The position numbers were made by a program, and so were the translations under genes. Source: a virus (lineage: Duplodnaviria; Caudoviricetes). Taken from it: DNA of 64,000 bases. Shown piece after piece: positions 2,917-32,433 of this stretch. The stretch spans positions 1-64,000 of IMG/VR virus record IMGVR_UViG_3300010998_000005. The stretch is one strand, 5' to 3'. How positions within the stretch are numbered: the stretch's first letter is position 1; every line of letters starts with the position of its first letter. The notes under the pieces are model-generated. The model was not told the DNA's origin and searched no databases. It saw only the letters and a list, made by a program, of their open reading frames with translations.

Positions 2917-3822
2917 TTAGAATAGTGTAGGTTGCTTTTGTTCTATCACATCTTTTAGTAAGTTCTTTCTTGTATAATACTTAGATTGCATTGTTGCAAA
3001 CATATCGGGTTGTATATTCTTTTCAAGATTGCTGCACGCATCAATATAGAAACGCTTGCTGACTTCCATGCCATAGGCTTTGCGTCCAAGTGATGCAGCA
3101 GCCACCAATGTACTACCACTTCCTGCGCAAGGGTCGATAACCACATCATCAGGGTCGGTAAACAATTCTACCAATCGTTTCAACAAAGGTATAGGCTTTT
3201 GTGTTTCATGGGTGCGTTCCATTCCTAAATCCCTTACCCAATCCATACAATTAAAAACCATTTGACCGTTGTTATTGAACTTTGGCAGTTTGTCACGATA
3301 GAGTATCAATCCATATTCGCAATTACCCACCACACGCATATTTGCTTTAAGCACTTGCGCTGAATAGTTTTTGCGGAATACAAGGTTTATGTAATGCTTG
3401 AAGCCGTAACGTTTCGCAAGTTCTATAAGGTAGAACTGTTGCATAAACTCGCAAAAGACTATCATACAAGGTGCGCTTGTTGAAGTTCTGCCCCCCCCAT
3501 TTTCTTTTGGTTCGGGTTTAAGCATTTGTGAAGCAAAGTGCATAAATTCAGCAGGCTTGAAATTCTCGTCAGTTACAAAGAATGTTTCGCCTGCTTTGTC
3601 GCTTTCTCCGTTCTTGTTATTGCCACCGATATACCAAGAAGGATTGCTACCATAAGCCTTGTCACCTAACGAATAAGGTATATCCGTAAGGATAAGTTGC
3701 GCTTTTGGTATGCCATAACGTTTGAAGTCTTGAAAAGAACTATTGAATAGTCCGACACGATTGTTGAGCATTCTAAATTCTGGATTCTCGACAGTTGCTA
3801 CGTCTTTTGTTGTCAGTTTCAT
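2917..3822 (-). CDS. DNA amino-methyltransferase (N6-A/N4-C, beta class)
   Basis: Motif IV LILTDIPY precedes motif I DPCAGSGST; HETQKP motif; C-terminus QPTLF. Confidence 0.9.
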   Translation of the reverse strand: MKLTTKDVATVENPEFRMLNNRVGLFNSSFQDFKRYGIPKAQLILTDIPYSLGDKAYGSNPSWYIGGNNKNGESDKAGETFFVTDENFKPAEFMHFASQMLKPEPKENGGGRTSTSAPCMIVFCEFMQQFYLIELAKRYGFKHYINLVFRKNYSAQVLKANMRVVGNCEYGLILYRDKLPKFNNNGQMVFNCMDWVRDLGMERTHETQKPIPLLKRLVELFTDPDDVVIDPCAGSGSTLVAAASLGRKAYGMEVSKRFYIDACSNLEKNIQPDMFATMQSKYYTRKNLLKDVIEQKQPTLF

Positions 3823-3850
3823 TGTTTCGTTGTTTTCGTGAATAATATTT

Positions 3851-4276
3851 TTAAAATTTTCCTTTCTGTTGTGGTATCATCTTGAATCCACCGTAAACAC
3901 AAAATAAGCCGAACAAAGCCATAATAGCATAAAGGCTTATAGTTATTCCGTCTGCCATACTAACGTGCGCTACAAGCCTACGGAACGGCAAATTAAGCGT
4001 TATTAGGTAAGCACACCTAAACGCATACTTGCAAAGTTCAAGTGCAAAGCACAAAATCCAAACAAGTAACACATCAAGCCAATCTATAAAGACTATATCT
4101 GAAAGAAAGAATGTGATAGGCAAATTGTAAAGCGTTTCATCCTCAACGTCAACTATCAGATTTTGGCTTATTACCGCATAAATGCTTTCTATATATCCGA
4201 CAAGTAATATGAATGCCAACACAAACGGAATAATCTTACCTAAACGGATAAGAATTTTTCTAAATAGATTTGCCAT
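3851..4276 (-). CDS. Integral membrane protein
   Basis: Several hydrophobic segments in 141 aa. Confidence 0.6.
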   Translation of the reverse strand: MANLFRKILIRLGKIIPFVLAFILLVGYIESIYAVISQNLIVDVEDETLYNLPITFFLSDIVFIDWLDVLLVWILCFALELCKYAFRCAYLITLNLPFRRLVAHVSMADGITISLYAIMALFGLFCVYGGFKMIPQQKGKF

Positions 4277-4431
4277 AATGTTTATGTTTTGCGTTTAACC
4301 CTAACTCTTAATAAGCCAGTGTTAGCAAGCATGGTGGGGTGTCCTATATTACCTACGTTGTTTTTTCTTGTTGTAGGTCTTAAAGATGCCCTCTGCTTTA
4401 CACGCAACTTTCCTCGCTTCGCCATAGGTCA

Positions 4432-4677
4432 CTAATCTAACTTTTTGTATTTGTTACTAACCCCACCCTCGTAAGCGATGAAGCCGTTGTCTAATACTTC
4501 TTGAACCCTAACTATCTCCGTAGTGTCAAGTTCTACATAGTCGCCAACCTTTATATCTCTTGGTATAAAGCATTCGCAAGTTTGGGTGTATTGAGCAACC
4601 TTTCCTTTATTAGGACACACTCCCTTGCCCATAACATCATAAGAAAAGTTCTTACATTCGTAGCAATAGTTCTTCAT
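4432..4677 (-). CDS. Small Cys-rich hypothetical protein
   Basis: CYECKNF...CP...CECF pattern common in phage accessory proteins. Confidence 0.55.
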   Translation of the reverse strand: MKNYCYECKNFSYDVMGKGVCPNKGKVAQYTQTCECFIPRDIKVGDYVELDTTEIVRVQEVLDNGFIAYEGGVSNKYKKLD

Positions 4678-4896
4678 ACCTTTATTTCCTCCATATATTC
4701 GTGCTTGTCACACTTTGGCTGGTAAGGATGTATCTTCCTTTCCTTAAAACACCTCTCGCCAAACTTGCAAGCAATGCACGTTGTCCTTTACCTTGTCAAT
4801 CATAAAATCCGTAATCATAGGTGAGGCATTGTTCTTACGCAACACCTCACCTACTTTCTGTATTACTTCTTCTTCCGCCATACAAATACAAATATT

Positions 4897-5535
4897 TCAC
4901 TTGTTAAGATACACTTGTTCTAATTGTTTGATAACATCACCACCAAAGGCATTTTTTGTAAGGTTAATAAACTCACGCATAGTCATTTCGCCCTTGTCTG
5001 GGTCAAGATTGTGCGCTCTTGCAAATTCATCACGACCAAACTTACAACTGCCCGTCAAAGTATGATGTAAGCCATAAAGTTCCTTATGTGAAACCTTTGT
5101 GTCGAGCGTAGGGTACTTGCTAATGGTGTCGGCAATACGCTCTTCAATAGGTATGTTCTCGTCATACTTCTCTTGTGCTGACTGCACAGCCTCTTTCAGC
5201 GTTTCACCATGCGCAAAATAACTCCCCACTTTCGCAATATAGCAAGGTACGAGTCCTACGTTGTAGCGTATGGTGTAGCCCTTGGCATAGTTGCGCTTAA
5301 CAGACTCTATTATAGTAGGAACACCATCCACCCTATACACAGTCTTACCATTAAGTTCTTTAACGCCGTTGCCGTTGCCGTAGCCGTTGCCGTAGCCGTC
5401 GCCGTCGCCGTAGCCGTCGCCGTTGCCGTAGCCGTAGCCGTCGCCGTCGCCGTCGCCGTTGCCGTAGCCGTTGCCGTAGCCTTCGCCGCAGCCCACGTCA
5501 AGAAAAACCTCAATCTTCTTCTTTAATAACTCCAT
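4897..5535 (-). CDS. Gly-rich (GYGNGDG) repeat phage protein
   Basis: Probable start MELLKKK at 5535; repeats GYGNG/GDGDG; C-terminal LHHTLTGSCKFGRDEF. Confidence 0.75.
   Translation of the reverse strand: MELLKKKIEVFLDVGCGEGYGNGYGNGDGDGDGYGYGNGDGYGDGDGYGNGYGNGNGVKELNGKTVYRVDGVPTIIESVKRNYAKGYTIRYNVGLVPCYIAKVGSYFAHGETLKEAVQSAQEKYDENIPIEERIADTISKYPTLDTKVSHKELYGLHHTLTGSCKFGRDEFARAHNLDPDKGEMTMREFINLTKNAFGGDVIKQLEQVYLNK
5366..5487. repeat. 6-bp tandem repeat (GCCGTN)n
   Basis: About 20 consecutive GCCGTT/GCCGTA/GCCGTC units encoding the G-x dipeptide repeat. Confidence 0.9.
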
Positions 5536-5819
5536 ACGCCCTGACCCTCCAAATTCTTGATTGCGACATCGGTGCAAGGTATAATTTGGCATACCCTGTT
5601 AAGTACCATACTCTGAACAAATGGTGACACTTGACCACCTTTAATACCATCATTGGCTATTTGTGATAAACAAGATGCACCTTTCCATCGCCATATGTTT
5701 CTTACATTTGTAATACTGACGGTTTCACCATTAACCTCATTAAGTGTTCCAAAGTACACACCTGCGTCATAACTACGCACAAGAACTTTTTTACCAATCA
5801 AATTTTCAATCGCTTTCAT
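5523..5819 (-). CDS. Small beta-barrel phage protein (DUF6948-like)
   Basis: KKVLVRSYDAGVYFGTL...RNIWRWKGASCLSQIANDG; as recalled, this family usually precedes Gly-repeat genes. Confidence 0.65.
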   Translation of the reverse strand: MKAIENLIGKKVLVRSYDAGVYFGTLNEVNGETVSITNVRNIWRWKGASCLSQIANDGIKGGQVSPFVQSMVLNRVCQIIPCTDVAIKNLEGQGVWSY

Positions 5820-5854
5820 GTTTTTTTTTATTTTTATAAGTTAAACAATAATTA

Positions 5855-6055
5855 CTAATCGTTTCGTGGAATACTAAGTATCATAAGCAGGAATATCACA
5901 GCCACCCAAGAAAGAAAACTTAAACACAATCCTGCCACTATGCCAAACACATAATCGTAGTAACGTGGATAGTTGTTGTATCTGCCACATGACACTACAA
6001 GATAAAAAGTCAATAGAAAGGCGCATATAGCACCGACAATCCAAAGTTCTGCCAT
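5855..6055 (-). CDS. Small two-TM membrane protein
   Basis: Two hydrophobic helices in 66 aa. Confidence 0.55.
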   Translation of the reverse strand: MAELWIVGAICAFLLTFYLVVSCGRYNNYPRYYDYVFGIVAGLCLSFLSWVAVIFLLMILSIPRND

Positions 6056-6103
6056 TGTTTTATTTTCTTTTGTTATTTAGTTTTCGTGAATAACTTTTTT
6101 TTG

Positions 6104-6190
6104 CGGAGGGTGAGGGATTTGAACCCCCGATACCGATTAAGGTATGCCTCGTTAGCAGTGAGGTGATTTCAGCCAATCATCCAACCCTCC
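6104..6190 (-). tRNA. trnS: tRNA-Ser(GCT)
   Basis: Minus strand GGAGGGT...ACCCTCC-G acceptor; anticodon loop CTGCTAA; long variable arm; T-loop TTCAAAT; CCA not encoded. Confidence 0.9.
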
Positions 6191-6286
6191 TTGATAAAAA
6201 GCCTACTGCCTTTCGCAAGTTTTCGGCTTAGAGAATTAACCTTAAATACTTAAACAAAATGAAAAAGCATATTACCTTATCATTTG

Positions 6287-6318
6287 CAAAGTTACGAAAT
6301 TATTTGTATATTGCCAAA
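6287..6318 (-). promoter_or_regulatory. Bacteroidota sigma-A-type promoter upstream of tRNA-Ser
   Basis: Minus strand TTTG-N20-TAACTTTG. Confidence 0.65.
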
Positions 6319-6331
6319 TCTTTAACATTCT

Positions 6332-6562
6332 TTATGTCTGCAAGAAATACTCGCATACACGTTTGTTGTTTGGTAATGTGACCATCTTTTTGCCGATATT
6401 GTAGCCTCGTTCTCGCAAATCCCAAATGCGACTTGCTAAACGGAAGCACCCGAAAAGGTTTAATGCTTCAAGGCTTGTAATCGAATAGCCTTTTTTCATG
6501 TACTCCGCAATCTTGTTGCACTGACTTTCACTTTCTTTCTTGTTCAAATTTACGTTTGCCAT
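6332..6562 (-). CDS. Winged helix-turn-helix protein (HTH_9-like)
   Basis: SITSLEALNLFGCFRLASRIWDLRERGYNI signature. Confidence 0.75.
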   Translation of the reverse strand: MANVNLNKKESESQCNKIAEYMKKGYSITSLEALNLFGCFRLASRIWDLRERGYNIGKKMVTLPNNKRVCEYFLQT

Positions 6563-6584
6563 AGTCGATACTTTGTTTTAATAG

Positions 6585-7987
6585 TCAATCCACCTTATAA
6601 AGATAACTCTTTGCCCCAGCCGTTGTCACAAATGTAACATCTGGATATGCTGCACCACCGCTGAATGTTGTGTGCTTGTCAAAGGTCTGTATATATGAGG
6701 CATTAGGCTTTATCTCCCCTTCCTCTACTTTCCACACAACACTCTCGTATGCCTTTCCCTTGCGAATAGTAAACGCAGATGCTAAAAGTTCTTTTGCTTT
6801 CATAGGTCATTTCAAATTTATATTGATTTGTACTTCAAACGCACGATGTGCCACCATGTTAATCTCACTAATCCAATATAAAGCATCGGACAGTTTTTCA
6901 AACATACGAGGTGCTTTTTCTTGTCCGTCTTTTGTGTAGTCCACACGGATATTGTAGCCACTTGTCGTTTTCTCTATTTTGGAAATGTTATAAACCAGTC
7001 CTCTCATCTTCTTGTTTGCCATAGCCTTATTCCTGCGTAATCTTTTTAAGTATTTTATTTAGTTTTTTTACCTCGCCATCAACAGCATTAGCAACTTGCG
7101 GATTATAACCACACATAACTGATGCTCTTTGGTAGTTGGATATTTGATTGATGATACACTCTCTAATAATATCTAATTCTAATTCGTTTAATGTTATTGT
7201 GTTCATAGTTTCTTATTTTTAGCGGTTTTCGTGCGTTCTAAGCGCATTTCTAATCAAAGGTGGATAGTTATTCCACAACGAAAAGAAAAGCCGTTAAAAA
7301 GCACTTTTTAATGTTTGTGAATAGTAATATGCTCAAATTCATTCCCCTAAGTCCGTCTCTTCGTAAGCCTCGATATATTCTCGGCATGTTTCGTAAAGTC
7401 TTTGTGCATATAGTTTCTCATTTGCGCTTATCTCTTCCTCATCTGTACCATAACTTTCTAATGCACCTACGCAATCGCACAAGTCTAAGTATGTGTTGTG
7501 AAATCTGCAATAACTCATATTCATAATTCTTTCCTCCTATATTATAATTTGTAAAATGTTACATTTGCTATCTCTACCCCAAGCACTTCTGCTTGAAACA
7601 AGAACGTAGCCATAGCCATAGCCACGTTGTCAGCAGGAAAAACCATGCTCCTTCCGTTAATTGTCGCCGTTGCCTTAATCATAGTCTTATCTGTTTTTGG
7701 TTTTTTGTTTTCTTCATTTCGCGCACCCATTTACGGGTTTCTTTGAGAATTAAATCCCAATCAACTACTGTGTGATTGATAATCCAAGACTCTTTGCCGT
7801 CATCATTTCTGTTGTCTTGAAATATCATACGAATATCCCACTCTTTTCGGTCAAAGCAATATAACTCAATCGGTGTTACATCGTTCCTCTTTTGTGCATA
7901 ACAATGCATCTTCCAATCACAATCAATCGCTGCGTCAAAGTTAAGTCCACAACACTTGTACTTAATATTTACAATTCTTTTTGCCAT
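6585..7987 (-). other. Cluster of small hypothetical genes (6585-6803, 6807-7022, 7339-7524, 7542-7730, 7679-7987)
   Basis: Closely packed 60-100-aa ORFs on the coding strand with A-rich leaders; no recognisable family. Confidence 0.5.
7234..7292 (+). repeat. Dispersed intergenic element, copy 1
   Basis: CGTTCTAAGCGCATTTCT-N8-GTGGATAGTTATTCCAC, followed by GCCGTTAAAAAGCAC. Confidence 0.65.
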
Positions 7988-7991
7988 GTTT

Positions 7992-8825: not shown

Positions 8826-8830
8826 AATGT

Positions 8831-17368: not shown

Positions 17369-18229
17369 ATGACAGAGGATTTAGAGAAAAAGGTTGAGCG
17401 TGCGATAAAACTCATTCAGAGTGCGAGTAAGATTGCTGCTGCTAATGGTTGTCCTGAAATAGAGGTGTGTTATTCAGGCGGCAAAGATTCCGATGTTATC
17501 TTGGAGTTGACGAAGATGGCTGGTGTGCCTTATAGGGCTATTTACAAGAATACTGGCATAGACCCTAATGGAACTATCAGACACGCAAAAGACAACAACG
17601 TAGAGATAATGCCGCCGAAGAAGAAGTTTATAGACCTGCTTGCTTATTATGGTATGCCTTCACGCAGAAACAGGTATTGCTGTCAGCATTTGAAAGAGTA
17701 CAAGATACTTGACTATGCTATATTGGGTATAAGAAGGGATGAAAGCGTGGCAAGGAGGGAACGATACAAGGAGCCAGAGCAATGTCGGGAATATAGCAAG
17801 AAAGAGAAATGTCGGCAATACTTTCCTATACTTGATTGGACGAAAGATGACGTGTTGGGGTTTATCAAAGAACGTGGTATCAAGTTGCATCCTATATACT
17901 ACAAGGACAATGGGGAGATAGACGTGGAACGCAGATGCGGCTGCATGGGATGCCCTATGGCTTCATACAAAAAGCGTCTTGAGGAGTTCAAGAAGTACCC
18001 CAATATGGTTAAACTTTATGTACGTGGTGGGGGGCAATACCTTGACAATCACAGCCTTAGCAAGATTGCGAAACTATGCAAAGATGGTTATCAGTTCTTT
18101 TGCTTTGACGTTTTTTGCGAACGCTCAAACATTAGATTCCAACAAAAGTTTGGTGCAAACCTCTTTGATGACGGCATAGACTGCAAGAAATTCTTGGAGG
18201 ACTATTTCAAGATAAAGTTCAAGGATTAA
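17369..18229 (+). CDS. Phosphoadenosine phosphosulfate (PAPS) reductase-family protein
   Basis: PP-loop YSGGKDS, CCQHLKE, GIRRDES..R, PILDWT, RCGCMGCP. Confidence 0.88.
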   Translation: MTEDLEKKVERAIKLIQSASKIAAANGCPEIEVCYSGGKDSDVILELTKMAGVPYRAIYKNTGIDPNGTIRHAKDNNVEIMPPKKKFIDLLAYYGMPSRRNRYCCQHLKEYKILDYAILGIRRDESVARRERYKEPEQCREYSKKEKCRQYFPILDWTKDDVLGFIKERGIKLHPIYYKDNGEIDVERRCGCMGCPMASYKKRLEEFKKYPNMVKLYVRGGGQYLDNHSLSKIAKLCKDGYQFFCFDVFCERSNIRFQQKFGANLFDDGIDCKKFLEDYFKIKFKD

Positions 18230-19065: not shown

Positions 19066-19632
19066 ATGTTAGAAAAGATTGAAGAATACACCAATCGTGC
19101 CTATGCCAACGCTCGCAAGCACGGCTTTCACGACGAGGAACTAAGCATTGAGCATTGTTTAATGCTTGTAATAACCGAGGTGTCGGAAATGGTAGAAGCG
19201 GACAGAAAGGATAGGGAAAGGGCTTCCGTTGAAATCTTTGTTGATGCTTTGCGAAATGTAAAGTTTACGCAGGCATTTGAGGACTATATCAAAGACCGTG
19301 TTCCTGATGAAATGGCTGACGTGTGCATACGTTTGTTTGACCTCTTGGGTGTATTAGACAAAAAGGAAAGGATAGACTTCGATATGCTTGGACGTGTCAT
19401 TAACACAAGCAAAAAGAGTGTAGGCTTTGATGCCATGTCCTTTACCGAGCGTGCGTATGCTTTATGTGGTATATTGACAAACAAGCCTCATATCGCTATA
19501 CGACTTGTATGCCGTGCGCTGGCTTTTGTTATGTATTGGGCAAAGGACTTGAATATAGACCTTGACTGGCATATTGAAATGAAGATGCAGTACAACGAAT
19601 TGCGTGCAAACAAGCACGGAAAGAAATATTAA
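19066..19632 (+). CDS. MazG-like nucleoside-triphosphate pyrophosphohydrolase
   Basis: LMLVITEVSEMVEADR and DEMADVCIRLFD acidic motifs. Confidence 0.75.
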   Translation: MLEKIEEYTNRAYANARKHGFHDEELSIEHCLMLVITEVSEMVEADRKDRERASVEIFVDALRNVKFTQAFEDYIKDRVPDEMADVCIRLFDLLGVLDKKERIDFDMLGRVINTSKKSVGFDAMSFTERAYALCGILTNKPHIAIRLVCRALAFVMYWAKDLNIDLDWHIEMKMQYNELRANKHGKKY

Positions 19633-19653: not shown

Positions 19654-20040
19654 ATGGAATTAACAGGAACAGTAGTAGCCGTATTAGGGGAACAGAAGTT
19701 CAACGGCAAGAACGGAGAAATAAGGAAGCATGGCTTTGTCATTGAAACAAGTGGCGAATACCCCAAAAAGGTTGCCTTTGATGTCTTGGATAGTGGCGAC
19801 AAGGACAAGTGGGGAAAGATGCAAGAACACGTTGTGGATGGCAATAATGTGTCCGTTTCTTTTGAAGTTTCTTCAAGGGAATATCAAGGCAGGTGGTTTA
19901 CACAAGCCAATGCCTTTAGGGTAATGCCTTTGTCGGGTGCAGGTGCAAGCGCACAAGCAACACAAAACCAAGCGTCTAATGCCGAACCAATACCAGCGAG
20001 TGCGCCAGTGGTACAAAATGAAGGCGTAGTGCCATTTTAG
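19654..20040 (+). CDS. DUF3127-family OB-fold, probable ssDNA-binding protein
   Basis: MELTGTVVAVL...GEYPKKVAFDV...VSVSFEVSSREYQGRWFT; flexible tail ending PF. Confidence 0.8.
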   Translation: MELTGTVVAVLGEQKFNGKNGEIRKHGFVIETSGEYPKKVAFDVLDSGDKDKWGKMQEHVVDGNNVSVSFEVSSREYQGRWFTQANAFRVMPLSGAGASAQATQNQASNAEPIPASAPVVQNEGVVPF

Positions 20041-20917: not shown

Positions 20918-21037
20918 CACAAGAATTAGTTGAAAGTGGTGTGCGAGACCGCTAATGACAATACTTATAGCCCCTTTCGTGTAGGTGATACTCGCACTAT
21001 CCCTACCGATTGGGGCGTTTTATTTGGAAAATGTAAA

Positions 21038-21880
21038 ATGGAATATACGAAAGATAACCCACTTAAAGTAATAACCCTTTGCAGTGGTTATGATAGTCAG
21101 TGCCTCGCCCTGAATAGATTAAAAGGGTGTTATCCCGATTTCGACTATGAATTAGTTGCTTGGTCTGAGTTTGACCCCGAAAGCAAAGCATCGCTGGAGA
21201 AGCAGCCTGCGGTTATAGCACATAATGCCTTATTCCCACAATGGAAAGACCGCAATCTTGGCGATATGACTAAAATAGAGTGGAATAAACTAAATCTGCA
21301 ATGCGACTTATTGTTTTATAGTACTCCATGCCAGAGTATTTCCGCGGCAGGACTGCAACACGGATTTGTTGAGAGTAGCGGTACACGTTCAAGCATTATC
21401 TGGAACGTGCGTGATGCAGTAATAGCACTAAAACCAAAATTCCTATGCCTTGAAAATGTTAAAGCAATGGTGTCAGGCAAGTTCGTGGGAATGTTTAATC
21501 TGTGGCAGAGAGAGTTGGAAAAACTCGGCTATGCTAACTTTGCACAAGTCCTTAATTCTAAAGACTACGGCGTACCACAAAACAGAGAGCGTATATTCCT
21601 CGTTTCAATAAGGATTGACAATGAGAATGATTACCCTAAGTATTATTTCCCACAGCCTTTCCGTTTGGAAAAGAAACTCAAAGATGTGTTAGAGGACAAT
21701 GTGGACGAGAAGTATTACCTGAGTGATGAAAGGGTGCAGGGTTTAATGGCAAGTACGGAGAAAGAGCAGGAGCGTGGAAATGGCTTTGCGTGGAATCCGA
21801 CAGATGGCAGCGGTGTTGCTTGCACCATTCAGACGACACAGAACAGGAAAACGGATAATTACTTGTTTGATGAACAATAA
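21038..21880 (+). CDS. DNA cytosine-C5 methyltransferase, N-terminal catalytic half (motifs I-VIII plus first TRD-like unit)
   Basis: TLCSGYD (I), YSTPCQSIS (IV), LENV (VI), YGVPQNRERIF (VIII); stops at NYLFDEQ without motifs IX-X. Confidence 0.92.
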   Translation: MEYTKDNPLKVITLCSGYDSQCLALNRLKGCYPDFDYELVAWSEFDPESKASLEKQPAVIAHNALFPQWKDRNLGDMTKIEWNKLNLQCDLLFYSTPCQSISAAGLQHGFVESSGTRSSIIWNVRDAVIALKPKFLCLENVKAMVSGKFVGMFNLWQRELEKLGYANFAQVLNSKDYGVPQNRERIFLVSIRIDNENDYPKYYFPQPFRLEKKLKDVLEDNVDEKYYLSDERVQGLMASTEKEQERGNGFAWNPTDGSGVACTIQTTQNRKTDNYLFDEQ

Positions 21881-22065
21881 AATTACCCCCCCAGAGGTGG
21901 ATATGCGAACAGCGGATACCGACACCGCAGACAAAGGATGGTTGTTGTCCTGCGTTGACAGCGACATACGATTATGCGAGTTTTGCGAATATGTTTAGCG
22001 TGGGTCATTATCCAAGGATGGGTGTAATAGAGATAGGTCATTATGAAGAAGTTTATACCGATTAA
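21870..22065 (+). CDS. TRD-like cassette 1, interrupted at a C7 tract (21886-21892)
   Basis: With C6 it reads MNNKITPQRWICEQRIPTPQTKDGCCPALTATYDYASFANMFSVGHYPRMGVIEIGHYEEVYTD. Confidence 0.7.
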
Positions 22066-22228
22066 CACGGACGCTGATGGTAATGCAAAGACTATTTTGG
22101 CTTGTTGTTATAAATTTGGTTTTTCAGCCTTGTTGAATTGGGAAGGTTCAACAATGACTTGCGTAGGTGTGGTACAAGATGAAGAAACTGACCGAAGGAA
22201 TCCGAATGAAGAAGATACTTGTTTATGA
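22043..22228 (+). CDS. TRD-like cassette 2 (intact)
   Basis: MKKFIPINTDADGNAKTILACCYKFGFSALLNWEGSTMTCVGVVQDEE... Confidence 0.75.
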   Translation: MKKFIPINTDADGNAKTILACCYKFGFSALLNWEGSTMTCVGVVQDEETDRRNPNEEDTCL

Positions 22229-22414
22229 TGATTATAATTCTGTTCTACCCCCCCCAATAAGCAGGGGGTTATAGGAACGATAACGCCACAATTCGGCAAC
22301 TCTACATTAAGAAATGGCTGGAAAATAATAGAAGTATATGAAGAAGAAAGCGACAGGCGGTGTGCGCCTTGCGAAGATGATACACAAGGTAAACAAGCCT
22401 TATTTGTGGATTGA
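22179..22414 (+). CDS. TRD-like cassette 3, interrupted at a C8 tract (22248-22255)
   Basis: With C9 it reads ...ILVYDDYNSVLPPPNKQGVIGTITPQFGNSTLRNGWKIIEVYEEE... Confidence 0.7.
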
Positions 22415-22508
22415 CACTTACAACCAATGTGTAAGTGACATTGCCGGAACGATAAAAGCGAGAATAAATAGTAATAATATGTATTATGTAAGTGTACCAA
22501 ATGGCTAA
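22338..22508 (+). CDS. TRD-like cassette 4 (intact, 56 aa)
   Basis: MKKKATGGVRLAKMIHKVNKPYLWIDTYNQCVSDIAGTIKARINSNNMYYVSVPNG. Confidence 0.75.
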   Translation: MKKKATGGVRLAKMIHKVNKPYLWIDTYNQCVSDIAGTIKARINSNNMYYVSVPNG

Positions 22509-22689
22509 ACAAGCATACGGACTCGGACGCTCTCGCAGTAGCAGTGGGAAAGGTGATATTGTAAATTGGCATCTTAATCCTTACGTCAACTGCATCCACA
22601 CTCTTGTAGGTGGAGGGTGGAAAACGATGGAAGTCTTAATTGTAGAAGTTTATGATGATACTGACTTGTGCGATAAGAGGAAGGAGTGA
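22501..22689 (+). CDS. TRD-like cassette 5 (intact)
   Basis: MAKQAYGLGRSRSSSGKGDIVNWHLNPYVNCIHTLVGGGWKTMEVLIVEVYDD... Confidence 0.75.
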   Translation: MAKQAYGLGRSRSSSGKGDIVNWHLNPYVNCIHTLVGGGWKTMEVLIVEVYDDTDLCDKRKE

Positions 22690-22822
22690 TGGCGAGTGGC
22701 ATTCGTCCGACCATAGCCAGAGGTTAGAAGTCGGCGGTGACATAGCTAATTCGATAACGTCTGTAAGCAAGAACAGTTTAATACTGATAGTTAATGAAGA
22801 TAGTAAAAGCGATAGGTCGTGA
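22652..22822 (+). CDS. TRD-like cassette 6 (intact, 56 aa)
   Basis: MMILTCAIRGRSDGEWHSSDHSQRLEVGGDIANSITSVSKNSLILIVNEDSKSDRS. Confidence 0.75.
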   Translation: MMILTCAIRGRSDGEWHSSDHSQRLEVGGDIANSITSVSKNSLILIVNEDSKSDRS

Positions 22823-22976
22823 AAGGACGGAAGAGGAAAAGAGACGTAGGCATTTGTATGGTGACAAAGGGGCAAGGTTCTCTAAAGGTAAGCAGTTATG
22901 CCTACTTGGTGATATAATAGGAGCGATAACGACTTTATGCACAAAAGACAACTTGATATGCGAGATAGAATTATAA
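22794..22976 (+). CDS. TRD-like cassette 7 (intact)
   Basis: MKIVKAIGRERTEEEKRRRHLYGDKG...GDIIGAITTLCTKDNLICEIEL. Confidence 0.75.
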   Translation: MKIVKAIGRERTEEEKRRRHLYGDKGARFSKGKQLCLLGDIIGAITTLCTKDNLICEIEL

Positions 22977-23138
22977 AATTAGGGTACTATATAAAGCCCA
23001 ACCGAAAGAATCCGAGCAAGGGTGTGGTGTATAGCATTGAAGGCATTGCACCTTGTATGTGCGATTTTTCTGGGGGGGGGTAATTTAGTGCCGACAATAG
23101 TAGTAAAAGATGAACGGGAAAGTAAAGAAACTGTTTAA
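22958..23138 (+). CDS. TRD-like cassette 8, interrupted at a G9 tract (23072-23080)
   Basis: With G8 it reads MRDRIIKLGYYIKPNRKNPSKGVVYSIEGIAPCMCDFSGGGNLVPTIVVKDERESKETV; with G9 a TAA follows immediately. Confidence 0.72.
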
Positions 23139-23252
23139 CATCTACGGCTTTGATGGCGGCAACTTCGCAGGGAATGTGTACGACCCTGAATATATCAGTC
23201 CTGCCCTCAGCACAATGGGGGGGGTAATCAGCAACCTTTAATAATTACAGAT
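23110..23252 (+). CDS. TRD-like cassette 9, interrupted at a G8 tract (23217-23224)
   Basis: With G9 it reads MNGKVKKLFNIYGFDGGNFAGNVYDPEYISPALSTMGGGNQQPLIITD and fuses in frame to the C-terminal half. Confidence 0.75.
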
Positions 23253-23525
23253 ATGGAACAGAAACAAAAAATCACCTTGCCTAAAGAATTAGAGGGCAAG
23301 AAGTTTAGAATCAGAAAACTTACTCCGAGAGAATGCGGACGTTTGCAAGATGTGGATGATAAAGACATTGACATCATCGAGAACGCAGGTTTGAGTAATT
23401 CAGCAATGTATAAATTGTACGGGAATAGTATAACTTTATCGGTCTTATTTTTCATTTTTGAAGAATTATTTATACCTTTGCACCCGAAAAGGGGCAAAGA
23501 GCCTATTCAATTATTATTATTTTGA
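23253..23525 (+). CDS. DNA cytosine-C5 methyltransferase, C-terminal half (motifs IX-X)
   Basis: IRKLTPRECGRLQDV (IX), MYKLYGNSI (X); ends IQLLLF. Confidence 0.9.
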   Translation: MEQKQKITLPKELEGKKFRIRKLTPRECGRLQDVDDKDIDIIENAGLSNSAMYKLYGNSITLSVLFFIFEELFIPLHPKRGKEPIQLLLF

Positions 23526-23526
23526 T

Positions 23527-24822
23527 ATGAGAAAGGAAAAAGTAATTCAGATGGATTTAGATGGAAACTACATTTCCGTCTTTGAAAGTGCAGTTGCTGC
23601 TTCTAAAGCATTAGGAGTTGGTTGTGGTAACATAAGTTTATGTTGTCGTGGACTTGCGGACAGAGTAAAAAATTATCGTTTTAGGTATGTTGATGATGTA
23701 CTAAACGAAAAAGCCGTGAAAATTCGACAAGTACGACACAACAAAGCGTCAGATAACCACAAGAAGGCATGGATTCCGAAAAGGAGAAAGGTTTATCAAT
23801 TCTCTTTAGATGCAGTATTGATTGCTTGCTATAAAAACGCAGATATAGCATCAAGTAAAAACGGAATCCCAAAGCATCTAATATTCCAATGCTGTAATGG
23901 GACAATCATCCAAAGCGGAGGGTATATATGGAGTTATAATAACAAAGTAGAATCTGTATTGAAGAACGATATTCCAACTGAACAAGGAGAAGAGTGGCGT
24001 GATGTAGTCGGGTACGAAGGTCTTTATATGGTAAGTTCTTTTGGTCGAGTTTGGAGTTTAAGGAGGAGAACAGAAAAAGTCGGGAATTTGATAGGTGGAT
24101 TTATGCTTACAAACCATATAGACAATAGGGGGAGAACGTCCAACACGCTAACAACAAAAAATGGGGAAAAAGTTAATGCAGTAACCGCTCGTCTTGTTGT
24201 AATGTCTTTTATTCCTAATCCAGACAACCTTCCTCAAGTAAACCATAAGGATGAAAATCCATTAAACAACCATGTGGATAATCTTGAATGGTGTACGGCT
24301 AAATATAATTGCAACTATGGAACAAGGATTGAAAGGATTAAAGAGAAGCAAAACATACCAATACTCCAATACACACTGAATGGTGAATTTGTTGCAGAAT
24401 ACGCTTCAATGCACATTGCCGCGGATGCTATAAATGCAGATGCAGGACACATTTGTGATTGTTGCTTGGGAAATAGGTCTTATGCCTATGGTTTCTTTTG
24501 GCGTTACAAAGATGATGAAATGTATAATTCTGCCAAAGTAAGGCTGCAAGATAAAATTTCCGCAAGTAAAAAATCGAGAGCAGACAAGTTTACGGCGAGA
24601 GCATTAAATGTAGTACAACTTGATATGAACGGTAAATATATACAGACACATCAGTCAAGTAGGCTTGCAGCGGAAAGAGTTGGAAGTTTCCGACCAATGA
24701 TTATAAATTGTTGCAATGGGAAAATATCAAATGTTAAAGGCTACAAGTTTATGTACGAGCGAGATTTCCGCAAGATGTTCATAGAAACGGAAAACGAAAG
24801 CCAACAACTAAGTTTATTCTGA
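23527..24822 (+). CDS. Free-standing HNH homing endonuclease with NUMOD4 and repeated NUMOD1-like domains
   Basis: EEWRDVVGYEGLYMVSSFGRV (NUMOD4); VNHKDENPLNNHVDNLEWCT (HNH); repeated V.Q..LDG..I..F/Y.S...A modules; ends QQLSLF. Confidence 0.9.
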   Translation: MRKEKVIQMDLDGNYISVFESAVAASKALGVGCGNISLCCRGLADRVKNYRFRYVDDVLNEKAVKIRQVRHNKASDNHKKAWIPKRRKVYQFSLDAVLIACYKNADIASSKNGIPKHLIFQCCNGTIIQSGGYIWSYNNKVESVLKNDIPTEQGEEWRDVVGYEGLYMVSSFGRVWSLRRRTEKVGNLIGGFMLTNHIDNRGRTSNTLTTKNGEKVNAVTARLVVMSFIPNPDNLPQVNHKDENPLNNHVDNLEWCTAKYNCNYGTRIERIKEKQNIPILQYTLNGEFVAEYASMHIAADAINADAGHICDCCLGNRSYAYGFFWRYKDDEMYNSAKVRLQDKISASKKSRADKFTARALNVVQLDMNGKYIQTHQSSRLAAERVGSFRPMIINCCNGKISNVKGYKFMYERDFRKMFIETENESQQLSLF

Positions 24823-24827: not shown

Positions 24828-25637
24828 ATGGGAGAAAGTATGATTGAACTTGACCATATCTATTGTGAAGATTGTTTAATCGGCATGAAGCGGATTCCTG
24901 ACGGGAGCGTGGATGCGGTGATTTGCGATTTGCCGTATGGGACAACCGCCTGCGCCTGGGACTCCGTGATACCCTTCGACAAGTTGTGGGAGCAGTACCG
25001 ACGTATCTGCAAAACAAATGCTCCGATAGTGCTGTTTGGCATAGAGCCATTTACGGCGGCTCTCATTATGTCGAATGTAAAGGAGTTTAGGGAGAAATTA
25101 ACATGGGAAAAACATAAACCGAGTAATATTGGCAATGCAAAGTACATGCACCTAAAATATTCGGAAGACATTGTAGTATTCTCCCGTGGAAAATGCACTT
25201 TTAATCCTCAAATGCAACCAAGAATAAGCGACAGAGTAAGAGAGGCGCAAAAAGGGAACAGTAAGCAATGGCGTAGTAATCGCAAGGAAACTGGCGAAGT
25301 GTCTTTTGCAACGCAATATGAGCCGCGAGATTGGAACTCATTTGATGCTGATAAGAAATACCCAGGAAATGTATTTTATTTCCCAGCCGTTGTTTCTAAT
25401 TCCCACGAGAAATGCGACCACCCCACCCAGAAGCCCGTTGACCTGCTGCGCTATCTCGTGCTGACCTACACCAACGAGGGCGACACGGTGCTCGACAACT
25501 GCATGGGCAGCGGCACGACGGCCATCGCCTGTATCAAGGAAAAGCGGCACTTTTTAGGATTCGAGCTGAATGAAGATTATTACAAGAAAGCAATCAAGAG
25601 AATAGAAGTTGAAAAATCTCAATTAACGCTATTTTGA
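24828..25637 (+). CDS. DNA amino-methyltransferase (N6-A/N4-C, beta class)
   Basis: DAVICDLPYG (IV), HPTQKP, VLDNCMGSGTT (I); ends QLTLF. Confidence 0.92.
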   Translation: MGESMIELDHIYCEDCLIGMKRIPDGSVDAVICDLPYGTTACAWDSVIPFDKLWEQYRRICKTNAPIVLFGIEPFTAALIMSNVKEFREKLTWEKHKPSNIGNAKYMHLKYSEDIVVFSRGKCTFNPQMQPRISDRVREAQKGNSKQWRSNRKETGEVSFATQYEPRDWNSFDADKKYPGNVFYFPAVVSNSHEKCDHPTQKPVDLLRYLVLTYTNEGDTVLDNCMGSGTTAIACIKEKRHFLGFELNEDYYKKAIKRIEVEKSQLTLF

Positions 25638-25638
25638 C

Positions 25639-26202
25639 ATGAAAGAAGAATGGAAAGAAATAGATGGTCATAGTGGGTACATGGTATCTAACTATGGAAA
25701 CATAAAAAGCCTGTCATTTAACAAGACTGGTGTAGAGAAAAAACTTACACCATGCGTTGATAAGAAAGGCTACCTTTTTGTGTGTCTTCACGGTAAACAA
25801 TTAAGGGTACATAGACTTGTGGCATTAGCATTTATACCAAAAGTTAATGGAAAAGAACTAATCAACCACATCAATGAGGATAAACAGAATAATGCCGTAT
25901 GGAATTTAGAGTGGTGTACCGCATCTTATAATCTTAATTACAATGGTAATAGAGAAAGGATTTCCAAGAAGCACAAAAAGAAAGTGTATGCTTATAAAGA
26001 TAAAGAGTTATTTCAATCTTTCGACAGTATAACAGAAGCCGCTAAAGCGTTCGGTGTTTCTATCAATAATATATCTTCGTGTTTACACGGAAGAAAGAAA
26101 CAAGCATGTGGGTGTGAATGGTCATTCGAGTTGAACAAGGAATACTACGACAAAGCCATGAAGCGCATCGACAACGAACGCCGACAACTGACATTATTTT
26201 AA
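25639..26202 (+). CDS. Free-standing NUMOD4-HNH endonuclease
   Basis: EEWKEIDGHSGYMVSNYGNIKS; RVHRLVALAFI; INHINEDKQNNAVWNLEWCT; ends QLTLF. Confidence 0.9.
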   Translation: MKEEWKEIDGHSGYMVSNYGNIKSLSFNKTGVEKKLTPCVDKKGYLFVCLHGKQLRVHRLVALAFIPKVNGKELINHINEDKQNNAVWNLEWCTASYNLNYNGNRERISKKHKKKVYAYKDKELFQSFDSITEAAKAFGVSINNISSCLHGRKKQACGCEWSFELNKEYYDKAMKRIDNERRQLTLF

Positions 26203-26520: not shown

Positions 26521-26532
26521 AAAGAATAAGAT

Positions 26533-28050: not shown

Positions 28051-28487
28051 AAAGTAAAATCTACGAATTTGACCCAGTGCTTTATCCGTTCCCTATCCAT
28101 GTCACAAAAGACTTTGACAAGGAAGAACTGAAAAGCATCTACAACGGAACGAACAGTGAAGGAGATGAAGTGCCATTGGATATAGATATTCCATCCACGA
28201 CTACGGCAAGAACATTTCAAGCCGTGGAAAAGGAAAGTGGAAATCACTATTACCTTGTCTGCTTGTTAAAGCCCGAAGATATAGGTGCAGGAATTGTGGC
28301 ACACGAAGCCGACCATATTACCAATGCCTATTTGCAGGACTTGGGCTTTTCCTTACCTACACCTTGGAATGATGAACCTCATGCCTATTTCCTTCAATGG
28401 GTGACTGACTGCATTTGGTCTGTCTTGATAAATGAGCCAGAAGAAATGAAAGGAGTATTGCTTGACCAAAAATCAGGGGAACAATGA
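28047..28487 (+). CDS. Putative HExxH metallopeptidase-like protein
   Basis: IVAHEADH followed by DEPHAY. Confidence 0.55.
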   Translation: MKSKIYEFDPVLYPFPIHVTKDFDKEELKSIYNGTNSEGDEVPLDIDIPSTTTARTFQAVEKESGNHYYLVCLLKPEDIGAGIVAHEADHITNAYLQDLGFSLPTPWNDEPHAYFLQWVTDCIWSVLINEPEEMKGVLLDQKSGEQ

Positions 28488-28540
28488 ACACAATTAGACA
28501 ATCAGCGAAAAAATGGTGCAGAACATTAAGGCATTAAAGT

Positions 28541-28678
28541 ATGGCAGCAAAAGCGTGTATTCTTAATTGTAAACATTGGATGTGTGTGGAAAATTACTGC
28601 ATAGTTAGCGGTTGCAAGCCGCCAACGACTTACGACCCTGAAACGTGCCCTTATTTCAAATCAAAGAAGAAATTATGA
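28541..28678 (+). CDS. 45-aa Cys-rich protein, paralog of 133-273
   Basis: Manual translation MAAKACILNCKHWMCVENYCIVSGCKPPTTYDPETCPYFKSKKKL. Confidence 0.65.
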   Translation: MAAKACILNCKHWMCVENYCIVSGCKPPTTYDPETCPYFKSKKKL

Positions 28679-28974
28679 AATGGCGTAAAGTAAAGAAGCA
28701 GTTCAAGAAGGACAAACACAAGTATTTGGGACTAAACCTTGTCGCACAAGATTCGACTGGCATGAATGTGGGCATGGTAGTAAGTGACGTAAAGATTCGT
28801 CCCGCTGGCGGAAAGCAAGTCTATTACGACTTTGAGGCTGAACCGATACAGAGCAAGTTGTGGGTGCCGAGAGAAGAGCCCAAAGGCTATTATTCCAACC
28901 ACGAATTCAGCGCAACCTTTGACATAACTATTGATACACCGACAAAGGATTTGAAGAAATTATTGAATATGTAG
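28675..28974 (+). CDS. Hypothetical protein
   Basis: Probable start MKWRKVKK overlapping the previous stop. Confidence 0.55.
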   Translation: MKWRKVKKQFKKDKHKYLGLNLVAQDSTGMNVGMVVSDVKIRPAGGKQVYYDFEAEPIQSKLWVPREEPKGYYSNHEFSATFDITIDTPTKDLKKLLNM

Positions 28975-29164
28975 ATTTTTATGGAATAAACTTTCTTAAT
29001 AATCCTTAAACAATTTACGAATACCAAATATAAGTAGTATTTTTGCAAAAGAAATAAATAATCAATGTGGCGTGTCCTACTTAAAGCCACAAAGATAACA
29101 ATAGATACTTGCAGGCGTGATGAACGGGTAGTAGGACACCTTAGTAGTCACGCTTGCAAAGTTT

Positions 29165-30049
29165 ATGCAGGTTACAATGAAAAAAAAAAGAACATCTTTT
29201 GTCTTTTATGGCGATTGGTATGATGCCATTTGCGGACTTGATGACAGTACGGCTTTAGAGGTCTGTAAATCCATTATGGCTTACGCCCTTGGAAGAGATG
29301 AGCCAAAACTATCCGACATGGCAAAAGCAATAATGATGCTTATACGACCCCAAATTGATAGAGATACCGAAAAATGGCTTAATACAAGAGAAAAGCGAAG
29401 TATCGCAGGAAAAAAGCATAAAGGAAATCAATATAGTAAAGTGGAACAAATGGAACAAAATGGAACAAATGGAACAAATGTTCCAACAATGGAACAAAAT
29501 GGAACAAATGGAACTGTTAATGTAAATGATAATGTAGATGTAGATGTTAATGATAATGTTGTTACCATAGATGATAACAAACAATTATCTTCATTACATT
29601 CAGATAATATAATATCAACTAAAGTTGATGCGTCATCTTCTCCTGTCTGGGCAGAGAATTTTGTAAAATTCTTTAATAATGCGATAGACAGGAATAATTC
29701 GGTAATAGCAAAAATAAGAATTATTCAAGGGAATAGGGAAAAGCAACTGAAAGCGAGAATAAAGCAATATGGGGAAGAAGCCGTATGTGAGGCTATCACA
29801 AAAGCAACGCAATCTGCTTTCCTTAACGGGCAAAAAGGATTTATAGCAACAATAGACTGGATATTAAAACCAAACAACTTTCCAAAAATCTTAGAAGGTA
29901 ATTATGACAACAGAGAAACAAGCGTATTTAGAACCAATGAATGTGAGCAGATTAATAAGCGGATTGCCTACGGACAGCAGACAACAAGACTTATGCGAGA
30001 GGAAGAAAATGTCCTTAACCTTGCAAACGCGGACAATCCACCGTTTTAA
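29165..30049 (+). CDS. Putative replication initiator (DUF6291-like N-terminus, DnaD/lambda-O-like organisation)
   Basis: SFVFYGDW..; internal iteron-like repeats; C-terminal FLNGQKGFIATIDWILKPNNFPKILEGNY. Confidence 0.75.
   Translation: MQVTMKKKRTSFVFYGDWYDAICGLDDSTALEVCKSIMAYALGRDEPKLSDMAKAIMMLIRPQIDRDTEKWLNTREKRSIAGKKHKGNQYSKVEQMEQNGTNGTNVPTMEQNGTNGTVNVNDNVDVDVNDNVVTIDDNKQLSSLHSDNIISTKVDASSSPVWAENFVKFFNNAIDRNNSVIAKIRIIQGNREKQLKARIKQYGEEAVCEAITKATQSAFLNGQKGFIATIDWILKPNNFPKILEGNYDNRETSVFRTNECEQINKRIAYGQQTTRLMREEENVLNLANADNPPF
29442..29514. repeat. Iteron-like repeats inside the initiator gene (candidate origin)
   Basis: Seven direct TGGAAC(AAA) units plus one inverted TGTTCCA. Confidence 0.75.
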
Positions 30050-30569
30050 GACCAAGGAAGAATTGCTCTTGAAAGCAAACAAAGACTCCGGCTCTTACTT
30101 CGTGCGCAACGAAAGAATTGCGTTTATGGGGGAATATCCCACGCTTACGGATTTAAGGAAAGCATACGGAGAGGGAACAGATGTACAGTGGCTCTTACCG
30201 CAGATAGGCTCTTTGGTAATGTTTACAGGTGCAAAGATGATGGACGAGGAACAACAAAGATACCTTGCAAGGATTATTGCCACCGACTATCATTTCTTGA
30301 AGATTACCGAATTATTGATATTCTTCCATAAGTTTGCAGCAGGGGAATACGGAAAGTTCTACGGCTCGGTAGATGCCCTTACCATAATGGAGGGGTTAAG
30401 GGATTTTATGAACTATCGGATTTACGCCCTGCAAAAGTATGAACAGGAAGAGCAAGAGGAAGAAAGGCAAGAGGAAGAAAAGAAAAACCCTCCCTTGTCT
30501 TTGCAAGAATGGCGAGAGATTAAGGCAATAATCGCAATGTATAATTCCGACTACACAATAGAATACTAA
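30009..30569 (+). CDS. Replication-associated protein (DUF6633-like)
   Basis: Directly after the initiator; FFHKFAAGEYGKFYGSVD motif; probable start MSLTLQ at 30009. Confidence 0.55.
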   Translation: MSLTLQTRTIHRFKTKEELLLKANKDSGSYFVRNERIAFMGEYPTLTDLRKAYGEGTDVQWLLPQIGSLVMFTGAKMMDEEQQRYLARIIATDYHFLKITELLIFFHKFAAGEYGKFYGSVDALTIMEGLRDFMNYRIYALQKYEQEEQEEERQEEEKKNPPLSLQEWREIKAIIAMYNSDYTIEY

Positions 30570-30602
30570 CAAATAATTATTCACAAACAAAAGAAAGAAA
30601 TT

Positions 30603-31035
30603 ATGAAACCAGAAAAAAGCAAAGAAGTTCTTTGTGGACTTCGACAAGGCAATGAGCGACGATGAAACTTTCTTCGCACTATGGAACAAAGACAGTGACA
30701 AGGAAAACACCACCTTGGTTGTTGCACCTAATACGGTGGAAAGCCAAGCGCAGGCAGCAGCCATATTGGCAAAGCGCATTTACGAAGGAATGAACGGTGA
30801 GGGTAACGAAAACGATAAGGTGCTTGCCGATATAATCGTGTTCGCAGTCAAGAAAGCATTTGAATGGCAAGAGGAAGATGATGAAGAAGAATACGATGAA
30901 GATGAAGACTACAAAGAAGAAGAATGTGCCGATTGTTCCGATATGCGCACTTGCAACGAAAAGAAAGCAATAGCATATCGCAAGAAACACCATATACCAA
31001 GACCAAAGAAGAAATCAAACAAAAAAATAAGTTAA
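30603..31035 (+). CDS. Acidic/Cys hypothetical protein with an apparent frameshift at A6 (30613-30618)
   Basis: ATG 30603 with typical leader joins the 30634 frame only if the A-run is 5 long (MKPEKAKKFFVDFDK...). Confidence 0.55.
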
Positions 31036-31039
31036 AATA

Positions 31040-31071
31040 TTTGGTATATTCAAAATAAAATAGTACCTTTG
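31040..31071 (+). promoter_or_regulatory. Promoter upstream of tRNA-Gln/dnaN
   Basis: TTTG-N20-TACCTTTG. Confidence 0.7.
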
Positions 31072-31176
31072 CATTGTACTTATGTGATTACATGATTTTT
31101 TGTTTGATTTAATGGTAGATAATAATTGCTTACACCTACAAGGCTTGTGATAAGTAGTAGTAGGTTTTTCAAAAAT

Positions 31177-31248
31177 TGGCGTATGGTGTAGCGGTAGTCA
31201 CATTTGCCTTTGGAGCAAATAGCCCAAGTTCAAATCTTGGTACGCCAA
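31177..31248 (+). tRNA. trnQ: tRNA-Gln(TTG)
   Basis: TGGCGTA/TACGCCA acceptor; anticodon loop CTTTGGA; T-loop TTCAAAT. Confidence 0.9.
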
Positions 31249-31290
31249 CAAAGTTAAATGTTTAACGAAAACGAAAAAGAAAAAGAAAGT

Positions 31291-32433
31291 ATGAAAATTC
31301 AATTAAACGTAAATGACATCCTTACGCCGCTTGTAAACGCAACAAGCGTGGTAGGCACAAAGAACTCTATCGCAATCCTTTCTTGCGTAATGATTGAGGT
31401 AGGAAAGAACAACACCCTTATAATTACGGCAAGCGATGGCTCGCAATGGGTTTCCACTAAGGCGACAATCATAGAAACGGATATTGCCGAGGGAACAAAG
31501 TTCTGCATCGAAGCAAAGGACTTAAAGCAAGCTCTGTCTAACCTTTCAGGGCGTATCGTAGAACTTAACTTTGATGAAACAGCGCACACGATGACTTGTG
31601 CTTTCGCCAATGGTAAGTTTACGTTGCCATACCTTAGTGCAGATGAATACCCACAAAGCACACCAATAGAGGGTGATGACAAGGTGGAATACATCTTAGA
31701 CGCACCAAAGATTGCAAGAATGATTGCGCAAACCAACTACGCAATGGCTAACGACCCATTGAGAATGGTTATGAACGGTGCGTACTTTGATTTCCATAAG
31801 GATGACCTTTCCATTGTGGCAAGTGACGGACATAAACTCGCACTTTGCCAAGATAAGACCATAAAGAACGAAGATGGCGAGGACAAATCCTTTATCCTTA
31901 TGGCTAAGTCTGCAAGCATCCTATCTACGTTAATAGACAAAGAGGAAGGACAAATCAAGATTGCTTTCAACGGTAATAATGTTTGCATCAACAACCAGAG
32001 CTTCAGACTTACGGCAAAACTCATAGAGGGCAGGTTTCCCAACTATAATGCCGTGATACCAAAGGATAGCGACAAAAGGGTTAAGGTGAACAAGGATGAT
32101 ATACTTAGCGCAATGAAGCGCATACTGCCTATGAGTAGTACAACGACCGAGATTGTAAAGTTTATCTTTTCACCAAACCTGCTTACTTTGTTCTGCGAGG
32201 ATGTAGATTACAGCAAGTCTGCAAGTGAAACAATGCAAAGCGACTACCCTAATCAAGCGGACTTTACCATAGGCTTTAAGGGTAGCGCAGTCGTACAATC
32301 TTTGCAAGCCATAGAGGGTGACGAAGTTGTGATACGAATGACCGAAAGCAGCAGGGCAGCGATATTCACAAGCGCAACAACCGATGAAACGTATTCACAC
32401 ATAGCATTGATAATGCCCATATTGGTAGATTAA
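31291..32433 (+). CDS. dnaN: DNA polymerase III beta sliding clamp homolog
   Basis: About 380 aa; ADEYP, ASDGHKLA, LIEGRFPNYNAVIP, C-terminal LIMPI. Confidence 0.93.
   Translation: MKIQLNVNDILTPLVNATSVVGTKNSIAILSCVMIEVGKNNTLIITASDGSQWVSTKATIIETDIAEGTKFCIEAKDLKQALSNLSGRIVELNFDETAHTMTCAFANGKFTLPYLSADEYPQSTPIEGDDKVEYILDAPKIARMIAQTNYAMANDPLRMVMNGAYFDFHKDDLSIVASDGHKLALCQDKTIKNEDGEDKSFILMAKSASILSTLIDKEEGQIKIAFNGNNVCINNQSFRLTAKLIEGRFPNYNAVIPKDSDKRVKVNKDDILSAMKRILPMSSTTTEIVKFIFSPNLLTLFCEDVDYSKSASETMQSDYPNQADFTIGFKGSAVVQSLQAIEGDEVVIRMTESSRAAIFTSATTDETYSHIALIMPILVD

Follow-up and report, generated by a model that had tools for sequence, protein, structure and literature searches.

The bacterial β-clamp-binding motif, a pentamer of the form QL[SD]LF or a hexamer of the form QLxLxL, is carried by Pol II, Pol III α, Pol IV, Pol V, MutS, MutL, Hda, transposases and the phage Mu protein C. 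QLDLF is the strongest pentamer, and the hexameric peptide LQLELDF is also mentioned, in a 2024 review of the β clamp, which does not mention DNA methylases as clamp clients (PMC11139829). Clients that come from mobile elements and phages include transposases (PMC4549789, PMC11417375) and Mu protein C, a transcription factor that depends on the clamp and bears a motif for binding it (PMC12867686). The only methylase-clamp case mentioned in a 2022 clamp review is that of Dnmt1 and PCNA (PMC9690074), and a full-text literature search of incomplete coverage found no link between a bacterial or phage methylase and a β clamp. The methylases M.EcoGIX and M.BceJIII co-purify with Pol I, and the authors of that study propose a sliding clamp as a possible intermediary (PMC7736820). 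How phage methylases keep pace with replication, ahead of host restriction, is not settled, and a clamp tether would be a simple physical answer. Here we analyze a 64,000-nucleotide stretch of DNA from a virus of the Caudoviricetes (Duplodnaviria), hereafter the window, which comprises the first 64 kb of the complete 78,094-bp IMG/VR record IMGVR_UViG_3300010998_000005, a genome with direct terminal repeats. This phage encodes three DNA methylases that end in Q-x-x-L-F, together with a β sliding clamp, DnaN.

A regular-expression scan for a terminal Q-x-x-L-F among all open reading frames (ORFs) of at least 40 residues in the window (n = 490) returned exactly five, every one of them a methylase 3' end: QPTLF (2917-3822, minus strand), QLLLF (23253-23525, plus strand), QLSLF (23527-24822, plus strand) and QLTLF twice (24828-25637 and 25639-26202, both plus strand). 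These are the five C-termini, at the same positions, that had been listed in an initial annotation of this DNA. Its statement that no other ORF ends in this way also holds, both in the window and among the ~124 gene-like ORFs of the whole 78,094-bp genome, where we found no additional Q-x-x-L-F end. Three of the tails are the present ends of both N6/N4 methylases and of the C5 methylase, and two are native methylase ends fused to HNH ORFs; because both HNH tails are relic methylase ends, we count three independent carriers of the motif and not five. The claim that all methylases of this phage carry the motif proved correct for the three methylase C-termini of the genome, and the chance of all three bearing it is 3e-5 (hypergeometric; five motif ends among 125 ORFs).

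The proposed match of these tails to the β-clamp-binding consensus was borne out at the level of sequence. Four of the five fit Q-L-x-L-F, and the Q-P start of the fifth, QPTLF, is shared with the E. coli MutL motif. As the five tails use different synonymous codons (Leu as TTA, CTG or CTA; Phe as TTT or TTC), their conservation lies at the protein level and not at the DNA level.

The two N6/N4 methylases both show a full-length PF01555 match over the Pfam cut-off of 26.7 bits. Methylase A (301 residues; 2917-3822, minus strand; E = 1.9e-20, 74.2 bits) has its QPTLF encoded at 2920-2934, preceded by a linker of ~30 residues, and methylase B (269 residues; 24828-25637, plus strand; E = 3.5e-30, 106 bits) has its QLTLF at 25620-25634. 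The C5 cytosine methylase (20930-23525, plus strand) is not one continuous ORF across motifs I-X: an N-terminal part with motifs I-VIII (20930-21880; PF00145, E = 4.5e-42, profile positions 2-227) and a C-terminal part with motifs IX-X (23253-23525; PF00145 profile positions 265-322) lie 1.37 kb apart. These genes, two of PF01555 and one of PF00145 that is split into pieces, make up the methylase gene content of the whole genome, where our searches returned no additional member of either family and no D12 or Dam-type methylase (PF02086, PF05869).

The HNH genes that carry the two remaining tails encode endonuclease 1 (431 residues; 23527-24822, plus strand; Pfam NUMOD1, NUMOD4 and HNH_3) and endonuclease 2 (187 residues; 25639-26202, plus strand; Pfam NUMOD4, HNH_3 and NUMOD1). 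Both appear to be homing-type enzymes, with HNH and NUMOD domains, insertion in a conserved gene and a duplicated target flank. A viral contig, L085, carries a 73%-identical C5 methylase without an HNH gene, and the C-terminus of that protein runs on into the sequence of the last 18 residues of endonuclease 1 (24766-24819, ending QLSLF), which are the native end of the C5 methylase; the uninterrupted homologue itself ends QMSLF. The C5 C-terminal part of the phage instead finishes in a surrogate end whose 21 residues were supplied by the cassette (23460-23522, with QLLLF at 23508-23522), its junction defined against L085. This surrogate has a GC content of 0.31, only slightly under that of its surroundings, and has nothing in common with the native end except the final motif.

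Methylase B shows the same arrangement. The last 25 residues of endonuclease 2 (26125-26199, ending QLTLF) are a second copy and the native end of methylase B, and the present end of the methylase (25560-25634) is the surrogate. GC content is 0.47 in the body of methylase B, 0.30 in its last 25 codons, 0.35 in the HNH gene and 0.42 in the relic copy, and the likeness to homologue tails is slightly higher for the relic (mean of 15.4 of 25 residues identical) than for the surrogate (14.3 of 25). These comparisons indicate that each HNH cassette supplied the methylase gene that it interrupted with a recoded, surrogate 3' end, and that the native end remained fused in frame to the endonuclease. 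Surrogate ends of this kind would keep the host gene working and would probably render the allele immune to cleavage. The motif that the initial annotation ascribed to the HNH proteins is there, as QLSLF and QLTLF, but L085, the GC content and the comparison with homologues mark these endings as relic methylase ends and not as properties of the endonucleases. The accompanying proposal, that the replacement tails recreate the motif and so point to selection on it, is supported, since the surrogates differ from the native ends yet retain the motif, and L085 shows what the native C5 end is. We regard the motif kept on the divergent C5 surrogate end as the strongest single sign of selection.

We also examined the tail in 120 metagenomic homologues of each of methylases A and B (59-89% identity in the methylase B set). 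The sequence ends in Q-x-x-[LIMV]-F in 46/120 homologues of methylase A, with the motif within 12 residues of the end in 70/120; for methylase B, 29/120 end in Q-x-x-[LIMV]-F and [LIMV]-F lies within 12 residues of the end in 63/120. Many of the remaining methylase A homologues end in hexamer forms, Q-x-x-L-x-L, a variant also found in Pol IV and Hda. The conserved positions in the homologue tails are Gln at -5, Leu at -2 and Phe at -1. Among homologues that end in [LIMV]-F, Gln is present at -5 in 45/46 (family A) and 29/35 (family B), and the adjacent positions vary. At least two unrelated types of linker precede the motif in the methylase A homologues, and some homologues continue beyond it. 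In a wider sample of 150 cluster representatives (clustered at 50% identity), 18 have the pentamer near the end. The methylase of Lactococcus phage P1048, an isolate, carries QMSLF three residues before its end. The nearest relatives of methylase B in genome collections (63% identity) are a 75.6-kb contig (L172) binned into a metagenome-assembled genome (MAG) of Bathyarchaeota and a sequence from a Bacteroidales MAG (L173); the former is similar in size to the present genome and may come from a related phage that was placed in the archaeal MAG by mistake.

These data bear on the possibility that the tails hitch-hiked, copied by HNH cassettes or inherited through common descent, with no selection on the motif. 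Two of the five tails are duplicates that arose through HNH insertion, as this explanation would have it. The motif is nevertheless present in homologues without any HNH gene, the native and surrogate C5 ends are alike in the motif alone, and the tails differ in their synonymous codons. The conservation statistics, with a near-invariant Gln at -5 amid varying neighbors, argue in the same direction, and we consider hitch-hiking extremely unlikely. The sequence comparisons indicate a genuine pattern, far in excess of chance, in which phages with β-type clamps carry at their methylase C-termini a short linear motif that is under selection.

The clamp gene of this phage (31291-32433, plus strand; ORF 31258-32433, true start at 31291) encodes a DnaN of 380 residues with all three DnaN Pfam domains over their cut-offs (PF00712, 65.7 bits; PF02767, 87.1 bits; PF02768, 42.6 bits). 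The protein matches β clamps in the PDB at E = 2.5e-40 in an alignment that spans the pocket segments. DGHKL (residues 179-183) and MPI (375-377) are retained, as had been claimed, and in 41 DnaN family members DGHKL, FPNY..VIP and MP are invariant, so that G180, H181, K182, L183, P250, V255, M375 and P376 of the phage protein are unchanged in all 41. We take the equivalent positions in the peptide pocket of E. coli β to be G174-H175-R176-L177, P242...V247 and M362-P363. A cognate clamp with an intact peptide-binding pocket is available in this phage. The motif is not a PCNA-interacting protein (PIP) box and the clamp is not a PCNA; both are of the bacterial β type.

We then used structure prediction to ask how the tail of methylase B is presented and whether it is placed on the clamp. 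In an AlphaFold2 model of methylase B (mean predicted local distance difference test score, pLDDT, of 78; mean of 72 for the last block), the last helix spans residues 249-263 and residues 264-269 form coil. Together with the variable linker in family A, this model suggests that the motif lies in an exposed, unstructured terminus. A complex between the phage DnaN and methylase B residues 225-269 was predicted in three runs with custom alignments and three controls, and the interaction prediction score from aligned errors (ipSAE) was 0.40, 0.43 and 0.43, against 0.01 for the best control, a result graded as weak support. Scores of at most 0.60 are mostly unreliable. The mark applied was passed by 58 of 80 solved complexes and by 2 of 110 mismatched pairs, and scores of at most 0.60 comprise only 7 of the 80 solved complexes plus both passing mismatches. 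The partner had a pLDDT of at least 52, and the runs agreed in at least 92% of contacts, with no individual contacts listed in the output. Because many clamp-peptide complexes have been solved, the pass may reflect likeness to known structures.

The models also speak to a different explanation, in which the tail is an intrinsic element of the methylase, such as a strand or contact for folding, dimerization or DNA binding, that needs no external partner. In methylase B the tail begins only ~5 residues past the last helix, as might be expected of such an element. Against it, the motif is modelled as coil, the linker varies in length and sequence, and some homologues run on beyond the motif; the motif occurs on the unrelated folds PF01555, PF00145, phrog_757, RusA, PcfK and PRTRC_E, and most PF01555 relatives in prokaryotic genomes are without it. 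We judge an intrinsic role very unlikely.

To ask how the motif is distributed around clamp genes, we retrieved 80 viral loci, each comprising dnaN and at most 10 kb of flanking sequence per side, by means of a DnaN alignment; a single DnaN query retrieved none. Among 2064 gene-like ORFs in these loci, 44 have the pentamer within 5 residues of the end, compared with 4.9 ± 2.4 when tails were shuffled and 4.2 predicted from the internal frequency of the pattern. The initial annotation had named as refuting evidence a motif no commoner at methylase ends than at the ends of other phage proteins; we found the pentamer on 8/17 PF01555 methylases versus 36/2047 other ORFs in these loci (odds ratio 50, Fisher p = 5e-10). 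Either the pentamer or the hexamer is present on 11/17 of these methylases, and nearly all have some ..LF ending. Beyond the PF01555 methylases, the motif-bearing ORFs of these loci comprise RusA-type resolvases, PcfK-like and PRTRC_E proteins, together with an HNH gene, a phrog_757 methylase and small ORFs. Among methylases, the motif occurs in several unrelated families, namely two PF01555 subfamilies, the phrog_757 methylase and the C5 enzyme. The tails on RusA, PcfK-like and PRTRC_E proteins and on small ORFs beside dnaN (loci L005-L084) suggest a wider set of phage clamp clients.

Away from dnaN, the motif is rare. The best 80 viral relatives of methylase B include only two with the pentamer, one of which lies on the sole dnaN-positive record among the 32 records of at least 25 kb that were searched. 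Relatives in prokaryotic genomes have the pentamer in 1/79 complete sequences, and most of them are members of a subfamily whose ending is different and basic. Many viral relatives of methylase B without dnaN (L099-L160) end in another conserved tail, N-P-L-L-x-A-L-x, which may serve for docking to a different partner or a different type of clamp. The suggested co-occurrence of motif-bearing methylases with dnaN therefore holds for the PF01555 family, at 8/17 in dnaN loci and rarely in relatives elsewhere, but not for the C5 methylases of the dnaN loci, where the motif is present in 0/8, nor for phage P1048, in which no dnaN was found despite its QMSLF tail.

These last two results weigh against clamp tethering, and they do not stand by themselves. 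As P1048 carries QMSLF without dnaN, a phage clamp is not required for the tail. The association with dnaN may come in part from the shared ancestry of the sampled phages, and the Fisher p-values overstate independence because the loci compared are phylogenetically related. The linker of methylase B, with only ~5 residues between the last helix and the motif, is a further point on this side.

An explanation that would accommodate some of these points is that the tail is a real short linear motif for a partner other than the β clamp, such as a different protein of the replisome or of the host, or a protease adaptor that recognizes a C-terminal degron and limits the lifetime of the methylase. 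Clamp binding is predicted only, and weakly, P1048 bears the tail without a phage clamp, and the conserved N-P-L-L-x-A-L-x tail on related viral methylases makes the C-terminus look like a general docking site. However, the pentamer and its hexamer alternates closely fit the clamp-binding consensus, the carriers of the motif cluster beside dnaN, and hardly any relatives in dnaN-negative records have it. We consider another partner rather unlikely. Together, the sequence data favor the reading that the Q-x-x-L-F tail on the three phage methylases is a β-clamp-binding motif, with clamp tethering of methylation as the best interpretation, to which we assign a probability of about 0.65.

If the tail is a clamp-binding motif, the peptide would extend as an exposed tail behind the catalytic domain and would dock in the hydrophobic pocket that lies between domains II and III of the clamp. 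The clamp would be the phage's own DnaN, or possibly that of the host. As clamps remain on new DNA behind the fork, methylases tethered to them would act at once on nascent, unmodified phage DNA, and such prompt methylation would protect that DNA from host restriction. We infer the physical binding, the clamp that is used (phage or host), the effect on methylation and its coupling to replication. The interpretation offered initially, that the methylases ride the phage or host clamp and modify nascent DNA at the fork, is partly supported by our analysis.

The genetic setting of the tails was defined from GC skew and ORF orientation, which delimit divergent modules. The plus-strand replication/modification module spans 17-36 kb and contains a single-stranded DNA-binding protein (SSB)-like protein, the C5 methylase, the two HNH/NUMOD endonucleases, an N6/N4 methylase (methylase B), a replication initiator, the β clamp and a Holliday junction resolvase; the second N6/N4 methylase (2917-3822) is on the minus strand. 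In whole-genome family searches we did not detect Pol III α, Pol A or DnaB helicase (family B polymerase was not searched), so the phage clamp presumably works with parts of the host replisome. The methylases are the only evident phage-encoded clients of the phage clamp. The SSB-like protein (DUF3127; 19654-20040, plus strand; phrog_4932, PF11325) ends in ..VVPF and the replication initiator or DnaD-like loader (29165-30049, plus strand; phrog_10469, phrog_345 and phrog_19658) ends in ..NPPF; both endings are reminiscent of bacterial SSB, whose tip is ..IPF. The module opens with a phosphoadenosine phosphosulfate reductase-like gene (17369-18229) and a gene for a MazG-type pyrophosphatase (19066-19632).

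The region that separates the two parts of the C5 methylase (21881-23252, plus strand) is broken into short, target-recognition-like ORFs that occupy three frames, and four G/C homopolymer tracts lie within it (C7, C8, G9 and G8). It contains about ten ORFs of 35-65 residues that resemble target-recognition domains, several with their own Met-Lys-Lys start. Relatives have the same broken layout with G8-G10 tracts (L085, 5869-8126; L087, 6041-7141), and sequencing error is unlikely as the cause of the broken gene because both share this layout. Slippage was considered as well, and changes of ±1 base at the four tracts give no single C5 ORF. Possible readings of the broken gene are a specificity system of the phase-variable or cassette type and a multispecific methylase that has decayed. 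Elsewhere in the 78-kb genome, a G/C run of at least 7 occurs just once, as a C8 (plus strand) at 3491-3498, inside methylase A, where it encodes Gly-Gly-Gly, so that all five such runs of the genome lie in methylase genes.

Clamp tethering, if true, would add DNA methylases to the list of β-clamp clients and would suggest a function for dnaN in phages without a polymerase of their own, where the presence of this gene is puzzling, and the type of tail would become a sequence marker that predicts the clamp used by a phage enzyme. More broadly, and at somewhat less than even odds, phages with β clamps may have repeatedly attached clamp tails to methylases and other DNA-processing enzymes, so that the phage clamp would be a private tool-belt, linking anti-restriction methylation to the fork. 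Such a system would be the equivalent of DNMT1-PCNA among prokaryotes and viruses, and tail type would track clamp type across phage lineages.

The locus can be compared with known systems on several counts. The HNH cassettes are like free-standing HNH/NUMOD homing endonucleases of the I-HmuI type in their domain set and in their location within a conserved phage gene, but differ in that they carry a recoded methylase 3' end, with the native end fused to the endonuclease ORF. Like the plasmid methylases M.EcoGIX and M.BceJIII, the enzymes described here are mobile-element methylases that appear tied to replication, physically so in the plasmid case; those methylases differ in that their demonstrated partner is Pol I, their substrate is single-stranded DNA and the study describing them reports no clamp-binding motif (PMC7736820). 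By analogy with DNMT1-PCNA, a methylase with a short clamp-binding peptide would be brought to newly replicated DNA (PMC9690074); DNMT1 is a large multidomain enzyme that uses a PIP box and a trimeric PCNA, and as there is no homology the likeness is one of analogy only. In sequence terms, the resemblance is to the bacterial clamp clients, with which these tails share the consensus, the preference for an exposed terminal position and the alternation of pentamer and hexamer, and from which they differ in that the proteins are DNA methylases and the clamp is possibly the phage's own.

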